A stretch of 61,431 nucleotides of DNA, the filler included. It is 3 parts of 3 records of this genome, joined end to end, with 100 filler letters (N's around TTAATTAATTAA, not from the genome) between each part and the next. Parts side by side here need not be neighbours in the genome. Positions count along the whole stretch, not along the records: positions 50,427 to 61,431 come from SRR31156797_5493; 2 more parts are not named here. One strand, given 5' to 3'. Shown in pieces: positions 47,382 to 61,431 of this stretch. The stretch's first letter is position 1. Every line of letters starts with the position of its first letter. Below the pieces are notes generated by a model. The model saw nothing but the letters and a program-made list of their open reading frames with translations. It was not told the DNA's origin and ran no database searches. A program made the translations under genes and the position numbers.

Positions 47382-48035
47382 TCAACCCAAATACAAGAAA
47401 TTCTCGATAATGCGCAGACCCACCGGTCCGCTTTTTTCCGGATGAAATTGCGTGCCGAAAACGTTGCCATGGCGAACCGCCGCCGAAACCAAACGGCCGT
47501 TATAATCGGCATCGGCCAGACGCGATGCCGGATCCGCCGGATCGGCGGTGAAGGAATGCACGAAATAGACCGAAACCCCCGGCACAAGTCCGTCGAGCAC
47601 CGTTCCCCGCCACAACCCGGCATCGCCCCCCTCGGGCAGGCGAAGCTGCGACCAGCCGATATGCGGAACCTTGTGCGGCGCGCCATCGGCTCCGGTCAGC
47701 GGAATTTCGACGACCGCGCCGTCGATGATCCCAAGCCCGCCGTGATCGCCGAATTCACGGCTTTCCGCCAGCAGCATCTGCATGCCCAGGCAAATCGACA
47801 GCGACGGCCGGCCGCTTTGCGCATGGACGCGAAACGCCTCGATCAGGTTTCGCCGGCGCAGCTCCGCCATGCCGTCGGCGAATGCCCCGACCCCCGGCAG
47901 GACCAGATAGTCGGCGGACGAAACCTTGTCGGGGTCCGCCGTCGTTTCGGTATCGGCGGCAAAATGCTCGAAAGCGCGTCTGACGCTCAAAAGGTTGCCC
48001 ATACCGTAGTCGACGATGGTGATCCGCTTTTTCAC
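47382..48035 (-). CDS. hisH: HisH-like glutamine amidotransferase (WbuY-type paralogue)
   Basis: DYGMGNL, LPGVGAF, ICLGMQ, YFVHS and QFHPEKS. Confidence 0.9.
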   Translation of the reverse strand: MKKRITIVDYGMGNLLSVRRAFEHFAADTETTADPDKVSSADYLVLPGVGAFADGMAELRRRNLIEAFRVHAQSGRPSLSICLGMQMLLAESREFGDHGGLGIIDGAVVEIPLTGADGAPHKVPHIGWSQLRLPEGGDAGLWRGTVLDGLVPGVSVYFVHSFTADPADPASRLADADYNGRLVSAAVRHGNVFGTQFHPEKSGPVGLRIIENFLYLG

Positions 48036-48808
48036 GACCGCGGCCCCGATACGTTGCGCACGCGAATTCCAGCCTGCCGCGCCACCTCGCGGATCTGCGG
48101 CAAAGTCCGCCGGTCGTAGTGCAGGATATCCGCCATCGAAACGGCGTCGGCCTTACCGTCGACGACCACCTGGACCAGATCCGAATCCGCCCCCATGCCG
48201 CCGCTGGCGATCACCGGCACTGGCACCGAAGTGGCGACCCGACGGACCAGATCGATGTCGAAGCCCTTGCGTGTTCCTTCCTGGTCGACCGACGTCAAAA
48301 GAATCTCGCCGGCGCCCAACTCGACGCCCCGCTTGGCCCATTCGATCACATCGAGGCCGGTATGTTCGCGGCCGTTGTCGGTAAACGCCTCCCACTTGCC
48401 GTTATTCTTGCTCTTCGCCTCGATCGACAGAACCATGCACTGGGCGCCGAAATAGTGGGCGATCTCGCCGATCAGCTCCGGCCTGGCGACGGCGGCCGTA
48501 TTGACCGCAACCTTGTCGGCGCCGGCGCGCAAAATTTCGCGGGCATCGTCGACCGAGCGCACACCGCCGCCGACCGTCATCGGGATGAAGACATTCTCGG
48601 CCGCCTTGGTGACGATATCGGTCAGGTTGTTGCGGCCATACAGGCTGGCGACGATGTCCATGTAAATCAGTTCGTCGGCGCCGGCATCGTAATAGCGCCG
48701 CGCGTATTCGTTCGGATCGCCGATGACCCGAAGCCCTTCCAGACGGATGCCCTTGATCAGATTCGGCCCCTTGATATCGAGCCTGGGGATGATCCGTACC
48801 GTACTCAT
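48032..48808 (-). CDS. hisF: HisF-like cyclase subunit (WbuZ-type paralogue)
   Basis: RIIPRLDIKG..LIKG, GGGVRS and GAGEILLTSVDQEGT. Confidence 0.9.
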   Translation of the reverse strand: MSTVRIIPRLDIKGPNLIKGIRLEGLRVIGDPNEYARRYYDAGADELIYMDIVASLYGRNNLTDIVTKAAENVFIPMTVGGGVRSVDDAREILRAGADKVAVNTAAVARPELIGEIAHYFGAQCMVLSIEAKSKNNGKWEAFTDNGREHTGLDVIEWAKRGVELGAGEILLTSVDQEGTRKGFDIDLVRRVATSVPVPVIASGGMGADSDLVQVVVDGKADAVSMADILHYDRRTLPQIREVARQAGIRVRNVSGPRS

Positions 48809-50145
48809 ACGCCTGGCAACGCTTCTTCCCAAATCGTCCGGCGCAGCTTCCATTCGCCGTCTTTGAGCATCCATAAGTGCGGCGAGCGGAACCGATTGGC
48901 CAGCGCATCGAAATAGGCCCGGTCCATGATCGGCTGTTCGAACATCCTGGATGCCACCGGAAATTCCTTCGGCGGCAGGCTCAGGTAGCGGAAAATCTCG
49001 TCGGCGAAGCGATCCGGGAATTCGCCGTCGAAACGGCGGATCAGGGCAACCGCTTCCTCGCGCGTGATGTCGCCCGATCGGACTTCCTGGGCGGAGTCAT
49101 AGGTGGCCCGTCCGATGCCGAATTTGATGAAGGTCGTGTAATAGTGAAAATCGTCGATGCGATCGTCGATGCTGTTGTATTTCGAGTACGTCCCCGGCGT
49201 GCGTTCCGGCGAAGCCTGGAACCCGCCATGTTCGACCGCATGGTAATAAGCCCCCTGGGGATGCCATTTCAGGTAGTAGCCCAGATAGTGCACCTCGACT
49301 TCGGTCTCGGCGATCTTTTGCGGATCGGCCGGATAGTAGGCATCGAGATCGCCCTCGTTGAGACCGTAATTCTCCTTCAGGTCTGCGACCGAAGTGCCGC
49401 CGAAATAGATCTCCGAATCATCCTGGGCGGTGAAATACTCCCAACTGCGGGTTGCCGATTCCGAATCCAGTTGTGGGTTGCCGTATTCGGCCTCGTTCTC
49501 GCCATAAAAAACCAGGGGAATACCGAACAGGATCGCCATCTTCGGCGCGAAGTTCTTTTGCCCGATGATGAAGGGCTGGAACGGATGCAGGATGTTCTCG
49601 ACGGCAAGGCGCGTCAGCAGGCGATGGACACGCCCGTTCGGCGTGCAAAGATAGTTGTCGAAGCCGGCATGGATCCAGGCCTGGAAATTTTTCCAGCCCC
49701 AATCCGTATACATGTGGGGCGCCCAGGTGACGGTCAGGGGATGCATGCCGTACTGATACTTGAGCACATGCGCCTGATAGAAACTGTCCTTGCCGCCGGA
49801 ACCGGGAACCAGACAGTCATAGGACCCGTCGGTGCTTCGGTAACGGTCGCACAGGTTGCGCAATTCGCGGTCGCGTTCGGACCAATCGATGGTCTTCTTG
49901 TCGGCGGCAACCTTGCAGGCGTCGCAAACGCCGTCCGCGTCGAAATGGATGGTCGCCTTTTTCGTTTCCGCCGTGTGTTTGAACTCGATCGCCGAGTTCG
50001 GCCGCTGGTTCGATATCCCGCAATTTCTGCAAAATTCGATATCGAGGGGCAGGCCGTATTTGATCTCGGGATTGTTCAAGCCGGGCGCAAATTTGTTGGC
50101 ATCGAAGGGGATTTTTTCCGGATCTTTGTGCATGCGGCGCACCAT
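48805..50145 (-). CDS. N-acetyl sugar amidotransferase (WbuX/PseA-like)
   Basis: CxxC pairs, PP-loop SGGKDS, YGEN.AEYG and KFGIGRA. Confidence 0.9.
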   Translation of the reverse strand: MVRRMHKDPEKIPFDANKFAPGLNNPEIKYGLPLDIEFCRNCGISNQRPNSAIEFKHTAETKKATIHFDADGVCDACKVAADKKTIDWSERDRELRNLCDRYRSTDGSYDCLVPGSGGKDSFYQAHVLKYQYGMHPLTVTWAPHMYTDWGWKNFQAWIHAGFDNYLCTPNGRVHRLLTRLAVENILHPFQPFIIGQKNFAPKMAILFGIPLVFYGENEAEYGNPQLDSESATRSWEYFTAQDDSEIYFGGTSVADLKENYGLNEGDLDAYYPADPQKIAETEVEVHYLGYYLKWHPQGAYYHAVEHGGFQASPERTPGTYSKYNSIDDRIDDFHYYTTFIKFGIGRATYDSAQEVRSGDITREEAVALIRRFDGEFPDRFADEIFRYLSLPPKEFPVASRMFEQPIMDRAYFDALANRFRSPHLWMLKDGEWKLRRTIWEEALPGV

Positions 50146-50326: not shown

Positions 50327-50426
50327 NNNNNNNNNNNNNNNNNNNNNNNNNNNNNNNNNNNNNNNNNNNNTTAATTAATTAANNNNNNNNNNNNNNNNNN
50401 NNNNNNNNNNNNNNNNNNNNNNNNNN
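50327..50426. other. Artificial contig spacer
   Basis: N runs flank TTAATTAATTAA (50371-50382). Confidence 0.98.
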
Positions 50427-53474: not shown

Positions 53475-54870
53475 CACCGCCCTCCGACTGCAGAATTTCC
53501 TTAAGTACCCTTGCCTTGTTGTTGCACTCCTTCCATTCCATTTCAGGATCGGAATCATAAACGATTCCGGCCCCGGCTTGCCAATGGCACTTGCCGTCAC
53601 GAATCCACATGGAACGGATGGTAATCCCGGTATCAAGGTTCACAGTATCCTTATCCAGACCGATGAAACCGATGCAGCCGCCGTAAGGGCCGCGCGGAAC
53701 GTCCTCAATCTCGGAAATTATTTCCATGGCCCTGATTTTCGGAGCACCCGAAAGGGTTCCTGCCGGGAAGGTGGCCTGCAGCACATCGATGGCATCATGA
53801 TCATCACGCAAATCCGCCTCCACATAGGATGTAATATGCATGACATGGCTGAAGTATTCGATCTGTTTGAATTTTTCGACGGTAACGGTACCTGGTTTGG
53901 CAATACGTCCGAGGTCATTGCGACCGAGGTCAACCAGCATAACGTGTTCGGCTATTTCCTTGGGATCGGCAAGCAGCTCTTCAGCAAACTTGCGGTCCCC
54001 TGCAGCATCCTTGCCACGCGGACGGGTTCCGGCGATGGGCCGAACTTCCAGCCTGCCCTTTTCACAACGGGCCATCATTTCAGGAGATGAACCGAGCAGA
54101 ATTTCCTCGCGGCTGAACTTCATATAAAACATGAACGGTGAAGGGTTGGCCTGACGCAAACGACGGTAAAGATCGAAAGAGTCACCGCTAAAGGGAGCGG
54201 AAAAACGGGTGGACAACACCACCTGAATGCACTCGCCTTGAGTTATCAAATCCTTAACCTTATTAACCCCTTCCATATATTTTTCCTTACCCGGAACAGC
54301 CACCGGATCACCAACCTTGGTGGGCTCGCACTCGGCACCGAAAACAGGCGGTGTAAATTCAGGAGCGTCGTCCTTATCAAGGGAAAGGAAACAACAGCTA
54401 TGCTTGAGATGGTCGAAGAGAACCACCCTTCCGGGCAAAGCCAAGCGGACCTCGGCATCATCTGCGGGTAACTTATCTTTGAGCTTCGGCTCCAACATTC
54501 CGGCAATACCATAGCCGAGTGTACCGTAGAGACCACGGGTCAGGGCGGGCAGTTCGCCCACTTCCGGCTGGGCATTAAGATGCAAGGCCTTCATGACCGC
54601 ACGCATGCCCTCTAGAAAATCCATACCCGAATAAGTTGCCAGTCCAGCCAGCCTTGAATCCGCACATTCCACGGACAGCTTGCCGCGCACAGGAGAAAGC
54701 TTAAGCCTGAAATCCCACGCGATGAGGCTGTAGCGTCCAAGTCGCCCGTCAACCTCGGCACTTTCCAATAGAATCCCCGGCGCATCACCCACCAAGCCCA
54801 GATACAGGCTGATCGGTGTCTGCGTATCAGCCGGCAACCATTTGCCGTACTGGGTAAGTTCAATTTTCAT
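53455..54870 (-). CDS. trpE: Anthranilate synthase component I
   Basis: LLES, NPSPFM, PIAGTRPRG, EHVMLVDLGRND and PAGTLSGAPK. GGAG RBS. Confidence 0.95.
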   Translation of the reverse strand: MKIELTQYGKWLPADTQTPISLYLGLVGDAPGILLESAEVDGRLGRYSLIAWDFRLKLSPVRGKLSVECADSRLAGLATYSGMDFLEGMRAVMKALHLNAQPEVGELPALTRGLYGTLGYGIAGMLEPKLKDKLPADDAEVRLALPGRVVLFDHLKHSCCFLSLDKDDAPEFTPPVFGAECEPTKVGDPVAVPGKEKYMEGVNKVKDLITQGECIQVVLSTRFSAPFSGDSFDLYRRLRQANPSPFMFYMKFSREEILLGSSPEMMARCEKGRLEVRPIAGTRPRGKDAAGDRKFAEELLADPKEIAEHVMLVDLGRNDLGRIAKPGTVTVEKFKQIEYFSHVMHITSYVEADLRDDHDAIDVLQATFPAGTLSGAPKIRAMEIISEIEDVPRGPYGGCIGFIGLDKDTVNLDTGITIRSMWIRDGKCHWQAGAGIVYDSDPEMEWKECNNKARVLKEILQSEGGDVFTRR

Positions 54871-54954
54871 CTTAAATTTCTCCGTATCCGGTTTAACTTT
54901 TCGTAATAAGCTGTTTGACAACTTATTGTAATCGCTCACACCAATTTTTAATAT

Positions 54955-54990
54955 AAAAAAAAGACCGCGTTCTGGGAGAACGCGGTCTTT
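54955..54990 (-). terminator. Intrinsic terminator between tyrA and trpE (attenuator 3:4 hairpin)
   Basis: AAAGACCGCGTTCT-CCC-AGAACGCGGTCTTT is a perfect 14-bp stem running into T8. Confidence 0.88.
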
Positions 54991-55013
54991 ATCTTTTTTA
55001 GATGCACTTCTCC

Positions 55014-55790
55014 CTAGGTATTGTTGTCACGCCACCACCAAGAAGCACGGTCTGCAAGCAGGTCCATGTCACCTGCTGCTGCTAGAGAAAGAAAAGAACG
55101 GAATAGACGGGTCGCTTCCTGACTGTACTGGTTGGCATCAGTAATAGTCCCGAAGAGATCGCTGTCCTGAGTAACCATCTTGCGCGCGGATTCGAGCCTG
55201 CGCTTGAAAGACGGGGTTACAAATTTTTTGATATTGGGAATTTCCCGGGAGCAGGCCAAAAATGCAATTGTAGAACTGAAGTTCAAGGCCTGAATCATAG
55301 CCATGGCCTTGTCATGTTCTTCAACCGAAGATTCAAAAGCACCGAAATTAAGGCGTTCGAAAAAATCCTTCACTGCCAGCATGGAGGGACGGTCCTCTTC
55401 ACGCTCGGCAACAAGAGCCACGTTAGGTTCGAAATCCTGCGGAATCACCGGTCCGAACAACGGATGAGTGCCAACTACAGGACCATCGTAAGCACGGTGC
55501 ATCTGCTGTACCGGACGGCCTTTGACCGAACCGACATCAGAAAGAATCGCGCCTTTTTTCATATGCGGAATAACCACGGGCAGAACCTCGTCCATGACCG
55601 TCACCGGGATACACAGTATCACCAGATCTGTATCCGGCAGACGGCGAGCCATTTTCTCCTCATCAAGAGGCGTATCAAAACGGTAAACCATCATTCCTGC
55701 CCGTTCGGCAGTGAGCGCGAGGAAGCCCCCCATCTGCCCACGGGACCCGATGATGGCTACGCTATGTATTTTTTCAAACTCGCACTCCAT
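55014..55790 (-). CDS. tyrA: Prephenate/arogenate dehydrogenase with C-terminal WWW
   Basis: IIGSRGQMG, DVGSVK, HPLFGP and EHDKAMA.IQ. Ends ...ASWWWRDNNT*. Confidence 0.92.
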   Translation of the reverse strand: MECEFEKIHSVAIIGSRGQMGGFLALTAERAGMMVYRFDTPLDEEKMARRLPDTDLVILCIPVTVMDEVLPVVIPHMKKGAILSDVGSVKGRPVQQMHRAYDGPVVGTHPLFGPVIPQDFEPNVALVAEREEDRPSMLAVKDFFERLNFGAFESSVEEHDKAMAMIQALNFSSTIAFLACSREIPNIKKFVTPSFKRRLESARKMVTQDSDLFGTITDANQYSQEATRLFRSFLSLAAAGDMDLLADRASWWWRDNNT

Positions 55791-55792
55791 GA

Positions 55793-57127
55793 CTAACAAC
55801 CATTTCCTTTTTTAACTTTTTCCCATTCATCCCAGAAACCGGGGAAAGATTTAGCTACACATCCTGGTTCTGCGGGAATTGATTCAATACCTGCCATGGC
55901 AAAAATCGCAGTACACATCGCAAGGCGATGATCATCATAGGTATCGAAGACAATGCGCTCGTCCTTCTTGAGCGGTGCCGGAATGATGGTAATGGAATCA
56001 GCAGTAATCTCTGCCTTGCCACCGGCACGCATGACCTCGGCAGCACTAGCTTCGAGGCGGTCACATTCCTTGATACGCAGATGGGCCACATTGGTGATGG
56101 TGGTTGGACTGTCCGCAAAGGCAGCAACAACCGCCACAGTAGGCACCAGATCAGGACATTTGCCCATGTCCACTTCCACTCCGTGCAACTTGGAGGGGTA
56201 GACGGTCACGCTATGATCGTCACTTTCGATCTTAACACCCATGGACTCAAGGATGTACATGATTGCCCGGTCACCCTGAAGGGAATTTACGTTCATTCCT
56301 TCAATCTTAACAGGATTGTTACCTACGGCCCCGGCTGCGAGGAAGTATGAAGCGTTAGACCAATCACCTTCCACGCGGTATTCATCTCGCTCAAACTTGG
56401 AAGGCTCGACCACAAAACGGATTTCACCGGGAACAACCTTCTCAACTTTTCTCCAATCTATCTTTTTCCATTCGCCGTTCTCTTTAAGCTGAACTTCGAA
56501 TTTTACCCGGAAATCTTCCATGACATTAAGAGTCAGAGCAACGTAAGGCCATGAAACCGCTTTCTTGCCGATTACATTGATGATGGTAGTCTCATCAGCA
56601 AGCGGTGCACCAAGCAGCAGACCGGAGAGGTATTGGCTGGATTCCTCAAGGGAAATATCCATTTCCTTACCTTTGAAACCGGAAGCTTCAAGAGTTACCG
56701 GAGGGTAGCCCTGCTTATCAGAAAAAGTAACCTTAGTACCTTGGGATTCCAGCGCGCTGGTCAATGCCCCGATGGGTCTATCATGCATACGCGGTGTACC
56801 CTGCACTCTGAACAATCCTTTGCCCGCACCAGCCAGTGCAGTAATCAAACGGCAGGTGGTACCGGAATCACGCATTTCCAGAACCGCAGGTTCCTTTACA
56901 CCGCCCCTGGGACCGCCATCCATACCGGTAACGTTGGTAGCAGTTCCATCAATCTTGAACTGCGCGCCCATGGTGGTCAGGCAATCCATGGTCCGGTTGA
57001 TATCGTTACTGTCCAGAGGATCAAGAACAACGGTATTTCCATCAGACAATGCCCCGGCGATCAAGGCTCTATGTGAGAGCGATTTAGATGAAGGAGCTTT
57101 AATTACGATTACATTTTCAGAAGTCAT
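55793..57127 (-). CDS. aroA: EPSP synthase
   Basis: SKSLSHR, SGTTCR, SSQYLSGLL, LRIKECDR and DDHRLAM. Confidence 0.96.
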   Translation of the reverse strand: MTSENVIVIKAPSSKSLSHRALIAGALSDGNTVVLDPLDSNDINRTMDCLTTMGAQFKIDGTATNVTGMDGGPRGGVKEPAVLEMRDSGTTCRLITALAGAGKGLFRVQGTPRMHDRPIGALTSALESQGTKVTFSDKQGYPPVTLEASGFKGKEMDISLEESSQYLSGLLLGAPLADETTIINVIGKKAVSWPYVALTLNVMEDFRVKFEVQLKENGEWKKIDWRKVEKVVPGEIRFVVEPSKFERDEYRVEGDWSNASYFLAAGAVGNNPVKIEGMNVNSLQGDRAIMYILESMGVKIESDDHSVTVYPSKLHGVEVDMGKCPDLVPTVAVVAAFADSPTTITNVAHLRIKECDRLEASAAEVMRAGGKAEITADSITIIPAPLKKDERIVFDTYDDHRLAMCTAIFAMAGIESIPAEPGCVAKSFPGFWDEWEKVKKGNGC

Positions 57128-57173
57128 TTTATATATTCCCGGCTTATTAAGCCTAGTAAAATTCTTTATTTTA

Positions 57174-58277
57174 TTAAAACTTACTGCCGTCTTGTGCGCC
57201 TGCCGGGTAACTGCCCAGAATCTTGAATGTAAGACAGCGTGCTTTAAGGTCTTCGATGAGCGTTGCATGCTCATCGGCCCCGAGATCACCCTGCAGATCA
57301 ACGAAAAACATGTACTTCCACTTTTCTCCTAGAGCGGGCCGCGACTCCAGCTTGGTCATGTTGATCTCATGACCGGAAAGCTCGTTGAGGACTTCAACCA
57401 GAGCTCCGGGTCTGTCCGGGGTGGTGAAAAGCAGCGAAGTTTTATCACGCTTACCTTCCTGTCCGGGCTTGGGTCCGATGATCAGGAAACGGGTCCAGTT
57501 GTCGGGCAAGTCTTCAATGGCTTCGGCTACTACATGCAGACCAAAAAGGTTGGCTAGTTTTAAATGACCTACTGCAGCTACGGGTTCATCGCTTTCGGCA
57601 ACCATCTGAGCTGCCTTGGCAGTGGATTCCACAGACACGAGCTCTGCACCGGGCATGTTGGCACGAAGCCAGCCGGTGCATTGCTCAAGTGCCTTGGAGT
57701 GTGAGTAGACCGTTTTGATCTCGCTGATGTCGGCACCCTTGGTCATAAGCCCGTGGCTGATGCGATGATACAGCTCGGCCTGAATGAAAACCGGGTAACG
57801 CATGAAGAGATCAACGTTCTGCCCGACCGTTCCCTTGAGCGAATTTTCAAGGGGGATGATGCCTAAGTCGGCTTCGCCCTTGGAAACGGCCACAAAAATA
57901 TCTTCAAAATTGTTTTTGGGAAGCAGGTCGGCCTGCCGTCCCATGTGCTGTAGTCCGGCAAAATATGAAAATGTCCCTTCGGGGCCTAGATAGACCACGC
58001 GTTCAGGCCTTTGCAGCCTGCGGGAAGAAGAAATAATTTCGCGATAAATTGCTTCAAGATGCTCAGGGGGGAGAGTTCCGGGATTACGCTCGATGAGACC
58101 GCGCAGTACTTCCTGCTCCCGGAAAGGCTTAAAAATCTGATCAGATGATCCGGCCTTAATGGCTCCAACTGCAAGAGATGCAGCGGCACGCTTGTTGAGA
58201 AGCTCTAGAATTTCACTGTCGAGGGAATCAATTTCCACCCGCAGATCGCCAAGATTTTTTGTGCTGGACTGTGACAT
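57174..58277 (-). CDS. pheA: Chorismate mutase/prephenate dehydratase
   Basis: LRVEIDSLD, YLGPEGTFS, PLENS, NWTRF and ACT-domain LESRP. Confidence 0.95.
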   Translation of the reverse strand: MSQSSTKNLGDLRVEIDSLDSEILELLNKRAAASLAVGAIKAGSSDQIFKPFREQEVLRGLIERNPGTLPPEHLEAIYREIISSSRRLQRPERVVYLGPEGTFSYFAGLQHMGRQADLLPKNNFEDIFVAVSKGEADLGIIPLENSLKGTVGQNVDLFMRYPVFIQAELYHRISHGLMTKGADISEIKTVYSHSKALEQCTGWLRANMPGAELVSVESTAKAAQMVAESDEPVAAVGHLKLANLFGLHVVAEAIEDLPDNWTRFLIIGPKPGQEGKRDKTSLLFTTPDRPGALVEVLNELSGHEINMTKLESRPALGEKWKYMFFVDLQGDLGADEHATLIEDLKARCLTFKILGSYPAGAQDGSKF

Positions 58278-58284
58278 TTTATTA

Positions 58285-59268
58285 TTAATCCTCTGAAATT
58301 TCTTCTTTGATGCGCATGCCGAAATGGCGGCCCGCTTCATCAATACGGCAAAGAACTTCGTCGCCTTCTTTCAATGTTACCACACTTACAGGTTCACCGT
58401 CACCGCTTACGACTCTGATAGTCTCAGCGTTCTGGAGGAATACCTTTCCTGAGATCGGCCCTTCTGGGGTTTGAACCTCAGCGGTGATAAGCAGCATGGG
58501 ACGAACTTCAAGCTTACTGCGTCCGACAACAGCCACAGAAGTCTCACCGCTTTTATCCACAACCAGCACCTCAGAACCGGAACGCAGTTCTTCAAGATAA
58601 GTAGTCTTGTCACCGGGCATGAGTGCGTAGGCATGAACAGCCCCGGCGTTCACTCGAAAAGGACGCGCGGCAACGTAAGGGTTGGATTCAGTTTCAGCAT
58701 GCACGAGAAAGGTGAAGGCAGAAGAATTTCCGGTAAGAATTCCCTGCCCTCTCTTAAGCTTGGATGTGGTGTCCACGCAGACCCGGTGGGCCAGCCCTGC
58801 GGATTCGATTTTGATGACAGTTGCTTTCTGGAGTTCCATCTTACCCTGCGAGAGTTTCAGTTCGGCTACGATCTGCTTAAGATCCGCAGCACCTTCGGGA
58901 GTAACCACGATGGCATCAGCACCGCGTTCCATAACGCTGGCAGCCAGCCTTGCCCGGTCAAGGGATTCAGCTTCAAGGGCAAGGGCATCAATCTGGGCAA
59001 GCAGGTTTTCAACGGGGATAATTTCCCAGCCTGCAGCGAGACAGACATCTTTGCCTTTTTTATCAAGATCAACAGCAACGGCTTCATCGGCCTTCTCGTT
59101 GATGGCAACGCAAGGCATATCCTCGGGAGTAATGACGGTAACTCTACCCAAACCTTCAATAGTTTCTTTGTCTTCCGGAGAAGTCAGAATAGCGTCCACA
59201 CCGGATTCAAGGGCAAGGCTTACGAGGTTCTTCTCAAACGGGATCGCTTTGAATATAATTTTTTTCAT
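58285..59268 (-). CDS. aroB': 3-dehydroquinate synthase II
   Basis: WEIIPVENL, RVCVDT, RPFRVNAGAVHAY, LQNAETIR and RHFG. Confidence 0.93.
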   Translation of the reverse strand: MKKIIFKAIPFEKNLVSLALESGVDAILTSPEDKETIEGLGRVTVITPEDMPCVAINEKADEAVAVDLDKKGKDVCLAAGWEIIPVENLLAQIDALALEAESLDRARLAASVMERGADAIVVTPEGAADLKQIVAELKLSQGKMELQKATVIKIESAGLAHRVCVDTTSKLKRGQGILTGNSSAFTFLVHAETESNPYVAARPFRVNAGAVHAYALMPGDKTTYLEELRSGSEVLVVDKSGETSVAVVGRSKLEVRPMLLITAEVQTPEGPISGKVFLQNAETIRVVSGDGEPVSVVTLKEGDEVLCRIDEAGRHFGMRIKEEISED

Positions 59269-59304
59269 TTTTCCTTTTCCTAACTTTCAACCATGAGCAG
59301 GCAA

Positions 59305-60102
59305 CTATTCGCCTATGTGAGCAAGAGCAGCGTCTACGGTTTCGTCTTCGTGAACAACCATGTGCAGGGCTTCCATCAATTTCACGCGTTTTTCATGCTG
59401 AAACACATTGCGACCAACGGAAAGACCTGCGCCACCTGCTTCGATAGAATCAGAGACCATCTGCAAGAAATCGCGGGTGGAATCAAGCTTGGGGCCCCCA
59501 GCAATTACAACCGGAATGCAACAACCTTCAACCACGGTTTTGAAAGATTCAATATCGCCGGTGTAAGGAACTTTTACGATGTCGGCCCCCAGTTCTTCAC
59601 CTGCGCGAGCGCAATGGGCTACAACTTCGGGATCAAATTCGTCCTTGATCTGAGGACCGCGGGCGTAAACCATAGCCAGAACCGGAACCCCCCAGCTGGT
59701 GGCAGCGGAAGCAACTTCACCGAGATCGGAAAGCATCTGCGCTTCGGCTTCATCACCGAGATTAACGTGAACTGAAACAGCATCTGCGCCGAGGCGGAGA
59801 GCGTCTTCAACAGTACCGACGAGAGTTTTTTTATTGGGGAGAGGGGAAAGACAAGTGGAAGCGGAAAGATGAACGATGAGGCCAACGTCGCCGCCTTCTT
59901 CGCGGTGGGAGCAGCGAACAAGACCTTTGTGCATAAGCACGGCATTGGCTCCGCCCTTAACCATGTCATTAACCGCCCGGCGCATATTACGCAGTCCCTT
60001 AAGCGGGCCGACACTTATGCCGTGATCCATGGGAACAACGATTGTCCTGCCCGTATTACGGTTAACCATCCGCTCCATTCTAACGCTTTTACCAATCTGC
60101 AT
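59305..60102 (-). CDS. aroA': 2-amino-3,7-dideoxy-D-threo-hept-6-ulosonate synthase (DhnA-type aldolase)
   Basis: PMDHG, HLSAST, ELGADIVK and VGRNVFQ. Adjacent to aroB'. Confidence 0.9.
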   Translation of the reverse strand: MQIGKSVRMERMVNRNTGRTIVVPMDHGISVGPLKGLRNMRRAVNDMVKGGANAVLMHKGLVRCSHREEGGDVGLIVHLSASTCLSPLPNKKTLVGTVEDALRLGADAVSVHVNLGDEAEAQMLSDLGEVASAATSWGVPVLAMVYARGPQIKDEFDPEVVAHCARAGEELGADIVKVPYTGDIESFKTVVEGCCIPVVIAGGPKLDSTRDFLQMVSDSIEAGGAGLSVGRNVFQHEKRVKLMEALHMVVHEDETVDAALAHIGE

Positions 60103-60169
60103 TTTAAATTCTCCTGAAGTTTGCCTCTAGATTCTCCAAGATCCGCTTCCCTTTTGGCGACCCATGCTT

Positions 60170-60211
60170 AAAAAAAAAGGGCCGCCGGCGATTCTTCGCC
60201 TGCGGCCCTTT
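60170..60211 (-). terminator. Leader-region intrinsic terminator (attenuator)
   Basis: AAAGGGCCGCAGGCGA-AGAA-TCGCCGGCGGCCCTTT running into T9, about 70 nt upstream of the aroA' start. Confidence 0.88.
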
Positions 60212-60240
60212 CGTAGAGGTCGTTTGCTATGCTACTTTTT

Positions 60241-60351
60241 TTATTTTTCGTACAAGCAAACCTCCACCCGACCACAAGCGTGGGTGCACCAAAAATAAAA
60301 AAAGTAAAAAAAGTATGAGAGGCCGGTGCCTAGGGTGTTGAAAGTCTGCAT
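60241..60351 (-). CDS. Aromatic amino acid operon leader peptide MQTFNTLGTGLSYFFYFFYFWCTHACGRVEVCLYEK
   Basis: 36-codon ORF below the ORF-track cutoff, with nine consecutive Tyr/Phe/Trp codons. It ends about 30 nt before the terminator. Confidence 0.85.
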   Translation of the reverse strand: MQTFNTLGTGLSYFFYFFYFWCTHACGRVEVCLYEK

Positions 60352-60596
60352 GGGTGTTACTTAACCGGGTCCTGAAAAAATTGTCAACAACTTTATTTAT
60401 TTTTTTACTATCATTAATATAATGAACACCATTTGTAATTTTATTCCAACACACACACAATGCAAAAGCACACTATTTACCTTTTTGTAATTTACCCCCC
60501 AAACAAATACGACAAAAAAGTTCAAAAACACATTTTTGTAATCAACATCCATGGGTTAACCCAAGAATATGTTAATCATTTCAACCACTTAGCCAC

Positions 60597-60613
60597 TTGG
60601 CACAGTCCGTGCT
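60597..60613 (+). promoter_or_regulatory. Sigma54 -24/-12 promoter of amtB
   Basis: TTGGCACAGTCCGTGCT has GG-N10-GC spacing. Confidence 0.8.
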
Positions 60614-60660
60614 TTAAGAAAAACATCCTTGAAGCAATCAACATCCCTAAGGAGGACTGT

Positions 60661-61431
60661 ATGACTATTAATCGTTCAATGGTAGGCCGCAAAATCCCGG
60701 CCCTCGCAACTCTCATGCTCCTGGCAGCACCTTCAGCGGCATTCGCAGCCGAAGAAGCCATGTCTCAGACTCACGGCAATATTCTCTGGACCCTTCTCGC
60801 GGCAATCCTCGTATTTTTTATGCAGGCAGGCTTCGCATGCGTTGAAGCAGGATTCACCCGCGCAAAGAGTGCAGGTAACATCCTGATGAAGAACTTTCTC
60901 GATTTTTCAGCCGGCTCGATCATATTTTTCCTGTTCGGCTTCGGAATCATGTTCGGCATTGACGCTGGAGGATTCCTAGGAACCACCGGATTTTCCCTCG
61001 CTGGAACAGGACTTACCGATCCAGATGCACAGTGGACCATCACCTTCTGGTTCTTCCAGTCAGTATTCGCAGCTACCGCAGCCACCATCGTCTCTGGCGG
61101 TATTGCAGAACGCACTAAATTCAGCAGTTACATTCTGGTAACCGCCATTGTGACCGGACTCATCTATCCCATATCCGGACACTGGGCATGGGGTTCCCTC
61201 TGGCTCGGCGATGCAGGCGCGGGCTGGCTTGAAGGCATGGGATTCATGGACTTTGCAGGCTCTACCGTAGTTCACTCCGTAGGTGGCTGGATCGCTCTGG
61301 CAGGCGCCATGGTACTCGGCCCCCGTATCGGCAAGTACACAGCAGACGGCAAAGCAAAAGCTATCCCCGGCCACAACATTCCGCTGGCATCCCTTGGTGT
61401 ATTCATCCTCTGGTTCGGCTGGTTCGGCTTC
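60661..61431 (+). CDS. amtB: Ammonium transporter (3'-truncated, absent from the ORF track)
   Basis: AAGGAGG RBS. Translates MTINRS...FFMQAGF..VEAG, FQSVFA.TA..IVSG..AER, HWAWG, DFAGSTVVH and LWFGWFGF. Confidence 0.95.
   Translation, partial: MTINRSMVGRKIPALATLMLLAAPSAAFAAEEAMSQTHGNILWTLLAAILVFFMQAGFACVEAGFTRAKSAGNILMKNFLDFSAGSIIFFLFGFGIMFGIDAGGFLGTTGFSLAGTGLTDPDAQWTITFWFFQSVFAATAATIVSGGIAERTKFSSYILVTAIVTGLIYPISGHWAWGSLWLGDAGAGWLEGMGFMDFAGSTVVHSVGGWIALAGAMVLGPRIGKYTADGKAKAIPGHNIPLASLGVFILWFGWFGF

Follow-up and report, generated by a model that had tools for sequence, protein, structure and literature searches.

Ten genes of aromatic amino acid biosynthesis lie in a single string on the minus strand of the DNA analyzed here, a stretch of 61,431 nucleotides (nt) that we call the window. 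Named by Pfam, they read aroA'-aroB'-pheA-aroA-tyrA and then trpE-trpG-trpD-trpC-trpF, and the order raises the question of how the trp half could be controlled apart from the genes ahead of it. The answer may lie in the last codons of tyrA. We propose that the 3′ end of this gene and the 143-nt intergenic stretch between tyrA and trpE hold a ribosome-mediated, Trp-sensing transcription attenuator within an aromatic supraoperon (aroA'-aroB'-pheA-aroA-tyrA/trpEGDCF), with full-length tyrA as the leader open reading frame (ORF). We put the probability of this reading, which is built on sequence comparison, at roughly 0.7. A sequence-only reading of the window had suggested such an element, with the complete 1:2/2:3/3:4 logic of the Escherichia coli trp leader. 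Coordinates in descending order are on the minus strand.

Trp codons, complementary segment and terminator at the end of tyrA

The prephenate dehydrogenase gene tyrA (55790-55014; Pfam PDH_N, 4.9e-16) runs for 258 codons plus a stop from the ATG at 55790, and its product ends in ...RASWWWRDNNT. The three consecutive Trp codons TGG TGG TGG (55040-55032; W251 to W253), which are the proposed sensing codons, are the only Trp codons of the translated gene. They are placed five codons ahead of the TAG stop (55016-55014), with the spacer codons CGT GAC AAC AAT ACC (RDNNT; 55031-55017) in between. The G of the stop is also the first base of segment 2 (GGGAGAAGUGC; 55014-55004), the putative 5′ strand of an antiterminator. 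Beginning 23 nt past the stop is a hairpin of 14 base pairs (bp), seven of them G-C, which a separate terminator scan also detects. Its 5′ arm (54990-54977) and CCC loop (54976-54974) make up segment 3, a possible partner of either segment 2 or segment 4, and its 3′ arm (54973-54960) together with a run of eight T's (T8; 54962-54955) makes up segment 4. The first gene under the proposed control, trpE (54870-53455; Pfam Chorismate_bind, 6.1e-88), has its ATG at 54870. All coordinates that the sequence-only reading had given for these parts, from the end of tyrA to the 14-bp/T8 terminator before trpEGDCF, are correct.

The 5′ part of segment 2, GGGAGAA (55014-55008), is perfectly complementary to TTCTCCC (54980-54974) in the terminator, and past one bulged G the helix is extended by UGC and GCG; both pairings had likewise been read correctly. 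The 2:3 pairing in the window has a z score of −2.6 (3 of 200 dinucleotide shuffles were as good) and an energy of −13.4 kcal/mol as a duplex or −12.4 kcal/mol as a hairpin, and its first paired nucleotide in segment 2 is 17 nt from the last Trp codon. The terminator hairpin has an energy of −21.2 kcal/mol. In the minimum free energy (MFE) fold of positions 55070-54945, the terminator is accompanied by an upstream hairpin in which segment 1 (GTGCTTCTT; 55048-55040) and GAGAAGTGC (55012-55004) form nine pairs, three of them G-U. This fold has a z score of −3.77, and none of 200 shuffles was equally stable. The word TGGTGGTGG has a single occurrence in the 61-kb window, but 36 of 100 shuffles contained at least one match, so that the word by itself is not significant; what is significant about it is its location and its conservation.

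No separate leader ORF was found between tyrA and trpE: the 143-nt intergenic stretch has no TGGTGG, and tyrA is the sole ORF to place Trp codons upstream of the hairpin. An internal start was rejected: the ATG within ...GDMDLL... would yield a peptide of 17 residues, but other clades have Leu, Val, or Ile at that codon. A role of segment 2 as the Shine-Dalgarno sequence of a small ORF was also rejected, with a distance to the GTG of about zero. At the site itself, Rfam yielded only weak leader-type matches (RF00513 Trp_leader, 18.1 bits, E = 7, below the gathering score of 41), and no T-box or other riboswitch was matched at E values of up to 10 in positions 54000-61431. The lack of such a match speaks against control of the hairpin in trans, whether by a TRAP-like protein, a T-box-like tRNA contact, or a small RNA, as does the stretch between stop and hairpin, which is short (23 nt) and varies among clades. 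No supporting point for control in trans was found, and we consider it very improbable.

To relate the two alternative helices to the position of a ribosome, we folded the window RNA with ribosome footprints masked. With a ribosome on the first, second, or third Trp codon and the RNA ending at the terminator loop, the 2:3 helix was present in the MFE structure. A footprint at the stop masks 55016-55004, that is, the entire segment 2, and stops 14 nt short of the hairpin. These folds are the footprint-constrained check that had been suggested for the element, and they are consistent with the following sequence of events. With ample charged tRNA-Trp, the leading ribosome would clear WWW and arrive at the stop, where it would cover segment 2 (55014-55004) while the polymerase makes segments 3 and 4; with segment 2 covered, the terminator would form and the trp genes would stay untranscribed. 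When tRNA-Trp is scarce, the ribosome would stall on WWW with its front edge short of segment 2. Free segment 2 would then pair with the top of the terminator 5′ arm and the loop, so that the terminator could not nucleate and the polymerase would enter trpE. The stall, the kinetic competition between the helices, and the response to Trp are what we infer from the arrangement of the elements and from their conservation, spacing, and matched pairing among relatives, which are described below.

Conservation, spacing, and matched pairing in Desulfovibrionaceae

We compared the junction with its counterparts in a sample of the family Desulfovibrionaceae centered on the genome of a close relative (L005). 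TyrA was present in 125 of the 151 sampled family genomes; the closest named relatives of the window are Maridesulfovibrio genomes, with TyrA identities of 90 to 97%. The loci comprised all full-length matches (L010 to L127), L001 to L006, and the window. Before trees were built and counts were made, we left out L010 (the same place as L005), L096 (a stop inside the match), L107 (an X in frame), L112 (a short fragment), and L119 (truncated at a contig end), and 120 family loci, the window counted, were analyzed. In 87 of them tyrA is followed by trpE, and the other 33 have no trp gene within about 1.6 kb downstream. For a wider view, we searched 201 genomes of the phylum, 85 of which were nonfamily genomes with a match. 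Among the best 25 nonfamily TyrA loci examined from this sample, none of the proteins ends in WW(W), and none of the genes precedes trpE.

A strong terminator was defined as a hairpin of −17 kcal/mol or below with a T-rich tail, 16 to 45 nt past the tyrA stop; L082, which has a weak hairpin that is not terminator-like, was excluded. By this definition, 45 of the 87 trpE-linked loci have a strong terminator after tyrA. A covariance model made from the element loci added L017 (51 bits) and L021 (44 bits), both with degenerate T runs, bringing the count to 47 of 87, and among L057 to L099, the unlinked loci gave no match to it at E values of up to 0.01. All 47 loci with the element encode WWW, and none of the 21 linked loci with WW alone has the terminator. 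The trp genes lie downstream of the element in every case. Across the 45 loci, 96.1% of the cells in the terminator helix are paired, and 11 of its 13 pairs show double-sided changes, which none of 500 shuffles reached. Covariation in both stems had been proposed as a check of the element, and for the 3:4 stem it is clear.

The position of segment 2 turned out to be tied to the Trp codons. In all 44 distinct loci used for pairing statistics, the sequence downstream of WWW forms its best duplex with the terminator 5′ arm plus loop through a purine-rich segment located at the tyrA stop. The distance from the last Trp codon to the first base paired in this segment is 15.4 ± 2.0 nt (range, 8 to 19 nt). 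The stop is always within or beside segment 2, and its own distance from the last Trp codon ranges from 6 to 36 nt (standard deviation, 7.9 nt). Segment 2 is thus held at a fixed distance relative to WWW and not relative to the stop. A spacing of 15 nt is what would be expected if a ribosome halted on WWW just misses segment 2 and a ribosome positioned at the stop covers it.

Segments 2 and 3 also match each other within loci. Over the 44 distinct loci, cognate 2:3 pairs had a mean energy of −21.7 kcal/mol, compared with −17.6 kcal/mol for noncognate pairs. In a more stringent set of 17 clade representatives with TyrA less than 70% identical, the cognate mean was −22.14 kcal/mol, compared with −17.91 ± 0.77 kcal/mol when partners were permuted, and none of 20,000 permutations was as low. 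The segments vary among clades and are still matched to their own partners: GGGAGAA/TTCTCCC in the window and GGGACGCGGC/GCCGCGTCCC, GGGGTGCGGC/GCCGCACCCC, and GGAGAAGTGC/GCACTTCTC elsewhere. The Gly-rich TyrA tails that are frequent among these loci (...GGGA*, ...GGGV*) are the translation of segment 2. The variable and often Gly-rich tails of TyrA may accordingly be seen as a translated spacer that is at the same time an antiterminator strand.

The main rival of the attenuator is a plain intrinsic terminator beside a structural WWW. It would simply end the aro/phe/tyr unit, WWW would serve the protein only, the trp genes would be expressed through constitutive leakage past the hairpin or from a weak promoter downstream of it, and the complementarity at the stop codon would have no switching role. 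Both the fixed distance of segment 2 from WWW rather than from the stop and a cognate pairing better than every permutation speak against this explanation, whose remaining support and drawbacks are taken up in the next section.

The same observations bear on a second rival, a sensor of translation coupling that is not specific to Trp. Here, any lag of the ribosome behind the polymerase at the end of tyrA would free segment 2, with a polarity like that of rph-pyrE, and WWW would be incidental. The geometry is compatible with this explanation, as it needs merely a ribosome that has not yet reached segment 2, and there is no conserved 1:2 hairpin (see below) that would enforce a default-off state. 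A full-length ORF acting as a leader also has a precedent in rph-pyrE, according to the accessible part of PMC2784333. On the other hand, the trp genes are downstream every time, there are always three Trp codons, and these are always at the fixed 15-nt distance. Moreover, an attenuator at the 5′ end of the operon, described in the last section, already reports the general supply of aromatic amino acids. We therefore regard a sensor of this general kind as improbable, though less so than control in trans.

Observations in favor of a possible structural WWW and plain terminator

Several observations weigh against a Trp-sensing attenuator, the first group of which concerns the protein. Of the 33 family tyrA genes not linked to downstream trp genes, 16 still encode WWW, and some of these lie on branches with more than 0.7 changes per site. 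Such unlinked TyrA proteins often terminate just past the motif (WWWK*, WWWD*). In an alignment of 45 diverse TyrA sequences, the middle Trp (W252) is invariant, and the flanking Trp residues vary, with W-F, W-L, and W-Y in distant members. An AlphaFold (AF2) model with a predicted local distance difference test (pLDDT) score of 95 places WWW inside the last helix, at residues 242 to 257. The closest solved relative of the window TyrA is 2pv7, the Haemophilus influenzae enzyme, and the phmmer alignments to solved structures end at residue ~227, short of WWW. Given the invariant W252 and the position in the last helix, a regulatory explanation for WWW is not needed. The sequence-only reading had proposed looking for the loss of WWW where tyrA is not linked to trp genes. 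This loss is seen in only part of the unlinked genes, which goes part of the way toward the refutation named in that reading. Every one of the 47 element loci has WWW. As the motif is kept in 16 of 33 unlinked TyrA proteins and its middle residue is invariant, WWW is not purely regulatory; it probably began as a structural feature of the C-terminal helix of TyrA and was co-opted later.

A second group concerns the RNA. In the window, the 2:3 helix spans just 4 nt of the 14-nt terminator arm plus the loop, and at −12.4 kcal/mol, it stands against −21.2 kcal/mol for the terminator. When 2:3 pairs were scored in fixed columns of a model-fitted alignment, covariation was weak: 70.7% of the cells were paired compared with 69.2% in shuffled alignments (12/500), there were 6 double-sided pair changes compared with 3.9 (22/500), and the covariation score was 0.231 compared with 0.222 (72/500). 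The fixed-column signal is weak because many registers are open to the G-rich and C-rich runs and because these runs also pair with one another's partners. For the same kind of reason, fixed-column scoring on a MAFFT alignment was dropped, as the G and C runs pair there in registers 125 to 131. The proposed check of covarying stems thus came out clearly for 3:4 and weakly for 2:3.

The 1:2 protector hairpin fared less well. Although its nine pairs are present in the MFE fold of the window, they are at chance level there (z = −0.7; 39 of 200 shuffles were as good). Neither are they conserved, as the median z score over the 44 loci is +0.4, with only one locus below −2, and the pairing is gone in the close relatives L004, L005, and L011 to L013. 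We rejected 1:2 as a conserved element on both grounds, and segment 1 is unsupported as a conserved part. What may stand of the full E. coli logic that had been proposed is its 2:3/3:4 core, for which the spacing, the permutation of cognate partners, and the masked folds speak and the weak fixed-column covariation does not.

A third group concerns the distribution of the element, which is missing from 40 of the 87 linked loci. Many of these have overlapping tyrA and trpE genes (ATGA) and WW only. In one such clade (L039, L044, L047, L089, L092 to L095, L102, and L104), the trpE start overlaps the tyrA stop or directly adjoins it, no terminator is present, and TyrA keeps WW alone (xWW), which fits a relaxed pressure on the third Trp after loss of the switch. 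Others, from G+C-rich genomes, have different hairpins without a T run. As a side observation, the WWW codons of L042 and L069 form the 5′ arm of a hairpin at the tyrA 3′ end with the stop in its loop, and downstream of it lies a second hairpin, which is G+C rich and lacks a T run.

A phylogenetically paired test of the terminator against WWW was not significant: there were seven independent pairs, of which ~1.7 changed in the same way, none changed in the opposite way, and 5.3 were unchanged. The test had too few contrasts. By branch length, none of eight changes of WWW state among the linked loci fell in the attenuator-only clades, which hold 43% of the tree length (0.57^8 = 0.011). As this is a rough test, the argument for retention of WWW in attenuator clades is only suggestive.

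Finally, we asked whether trpE could have a promoter of its own. Some 30 nt past the terminator, the window has a −10-like TACAAT (54930-54925), another point for a plain terminator, and close relatives (L001, L004, and L005) keep a TAnnnT at this site, as TACAGT, TATACT, and TATAAT. Our scan of the minus strand between the terminator and trpE in the window revealed no sigma-70-like site. Judging from the TACAAT box, there may be a weak internal trpE promoter in the window's genus, where the gap from hairpin to trpE is 84 nt in the window. In 16 of the 45 loci, the terminator ends only 25 to 45 nt before the trpE start, a gap that is too short for a promoter and a leader, and trpE is therefore reachable there by read-through alone. 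Three loci (L014, L017, and L019) have unusually long gaps, with 531 to 864 nt from the tyrA attenuator hairpin to trpE, compared with 76 to 320 nt from the tyrA stop to trpE in other loci.

Set against each other, these results leave the plain terminator as an unlikely explanation, if the least unlikely of the rivals. It gains from the WWW of unlinked TyrA proteins with its invariant middle residue in a terminal helix, from the nonsignificant paired test and the weak fixed-column covariation of 2:3, and from the TAnnnT box in the window's genus. Besides the spacing and the cognate pairing, it is at odds with the gap of at most 45 nt between hairpin and trpE in 16 of 45 loci, with the presence of WWW in all element loci, whereas loci with overlapping tyrA and trpE mostly have WW only, and, by the rough test, with the lack of WWW changes in attenuator-only clades. 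An attenuator that reads the Trp codons of tyrA remains our preferred explanation.

The supraoperon and comparison with known systems

The operon has a second candidate control point at its head. A classical leader-peptide attenuator (60351-60170) is found there, with a 36-codon ORF (60351-60241; ...SYFFYFFYFW...), a hairpin (60208-60179), and a run of nine T's; the Rfam Phe_leader model matches at 35.2 bits, with a cutoff of 55. An F/Y/W-rich leader ORF and a GGGCCGC...GCGGCCC terminator were present upstream of aroA' in all 10 relatives sampled. Just upstream of the leader ORF in the window is a perfect TTGACA (60387-60382), followed after 17 nt by TTAAGT. This pair is likely the operon promoter, and from its position, hardly any untranslated leader would precede the ATG. 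For the Desulfovibrio vulgaris supraoperon, one predicted attenuator, ahead of the operon, is described in the accessible part of PMC1173090, which gives no internal one.

The genes of the string follow in order from aroA' (a DeoC-type aldolase; 60102-59305) through aroB' (3-dehydroquinate synthase II), located between aroA' and pheA, then pheA (chorismate mutase-prephenate dehydratase) after aroB', and aroA (5-enolpyruvylshikimate-3-phosphate synthase) between pheA and tyrA, all assigned by Pfam. Downstream of trpE, the Pfam-assigned genes trpG, trpD, trpC, and trpF extend to 50485. The trp operon is cut off 55 nt past trpF by a contig-joining linker (50327-50426), in which TTAATTAATTAA (50382-50371) lies between two runs of N, and trpB and trpA are outside the visible DNA. 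The ORFs past the linker (His_biosynth, 48032-48874; GATase, 47382-48035) belong to a different contig.

The element resembles the E. coli trp leader trpL (RF00513) in having tandem Trp codons only a few codons ahead of a stop, a Rho-independent terminator immediately upstream of trpE, and a putative, mutually exclusive antiterminator whose 5′ strand lies ~15 nt past the Trp codons and would be covered by a terminating ribosome. The helix energies of trpL are similar to those computed here (2:3, approximately −12 kcal/mol; 3:4, approximately −21 kcal/mol). It differs from trpL in that the leader is a 258-codon enzyme gene in the middle of an operon and not a separate leader of 14 to 30 codons, there is no conserved 1:2 pause or protector hairpin, the Rfam score is 18.1 bits against a gathering score of 41, and the sensing residues belong to a folded protein. 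The regulatory principle would thus be that of known ribosome-mediated attenuation, but with a full-length enzyme gene as the Trp leader.

In the rph-pyrE operon of E. coli, the signal is UTP-dependent pausing of the polymerase, and the ribosome hinders the terminator itself. In the element described here, by comparison, the signal would be tRNA-Trp, the stop is 23 nt ahead of the hairpin, and the ribosome would cover the antiterminator strand. The general layout is nonetheless of the rph-pyrE type (tyrA stop at 55014, hairpin from 54990, and trpE ATG at 54870). As far as the accessible part of PMC2784333 describes it, the leader of rph-pyrE is likewise a full-length upstream cistron, and where its stop lies with respect to an attenuator hairpin between the cistrons decides the expression of the downstream gene. 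A further parallel is YtgCR of Chlamydia trachomatis, for which the accessible part of PMC7755916 describes WWW codons in a full-length functional protein that couple the Trp supply to downstream transcription and trp expression. The stall there leads to Rho-independent termination and loss of a repressor, an indirect effect that at the RNA level has the opposite sign to the one predicted here, where the stall would keep transcription from terminating right before trpE. Full-text searches, which could not cover subscription papers and supplements, turned up no attenuator described for the tyrA 3′ end, so that a prior description is possible; the accessible parts of PMC545781 and PMC5343134 contain nothing on a tyrA 3′ attenuator.

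Judged from the loci compared, the design appears to be common to many sulfate-reducing relatives. On balance, we favor the broader view that, across much of Desulfovibrionaceae, a folded enzyme has become the amino acid sensor of its own operon, with a structural WWW co-opted for sensing, the tail serving as spacer and antiterminator, and the two attenuators forming a hierarchy. In such two-tier control, a shortage of any aromatic amino acid would open the operon through the 5′ leader, and a shortage of Trp alone would open the trp half. Possibly, a stall at WWW also lowers the synthesis of TyrA when Trp is scarce, which would leave more chorismate to the Trp branch. In its textbook form, attenuation requires a dedicated minigene; if our reading is true, the last codons of an ordinary enzyme gene suffice, and a class of internal attenuators would escape searches confined to short leader ORFs. 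The junction would then also be a case of dual coding, in which a protein tail doubles as a regulatory RNA strand and a structural motif has been turned into a sensor, and it would explain how the Trp branch can be controlled separately within a single aromatic supraoperon.

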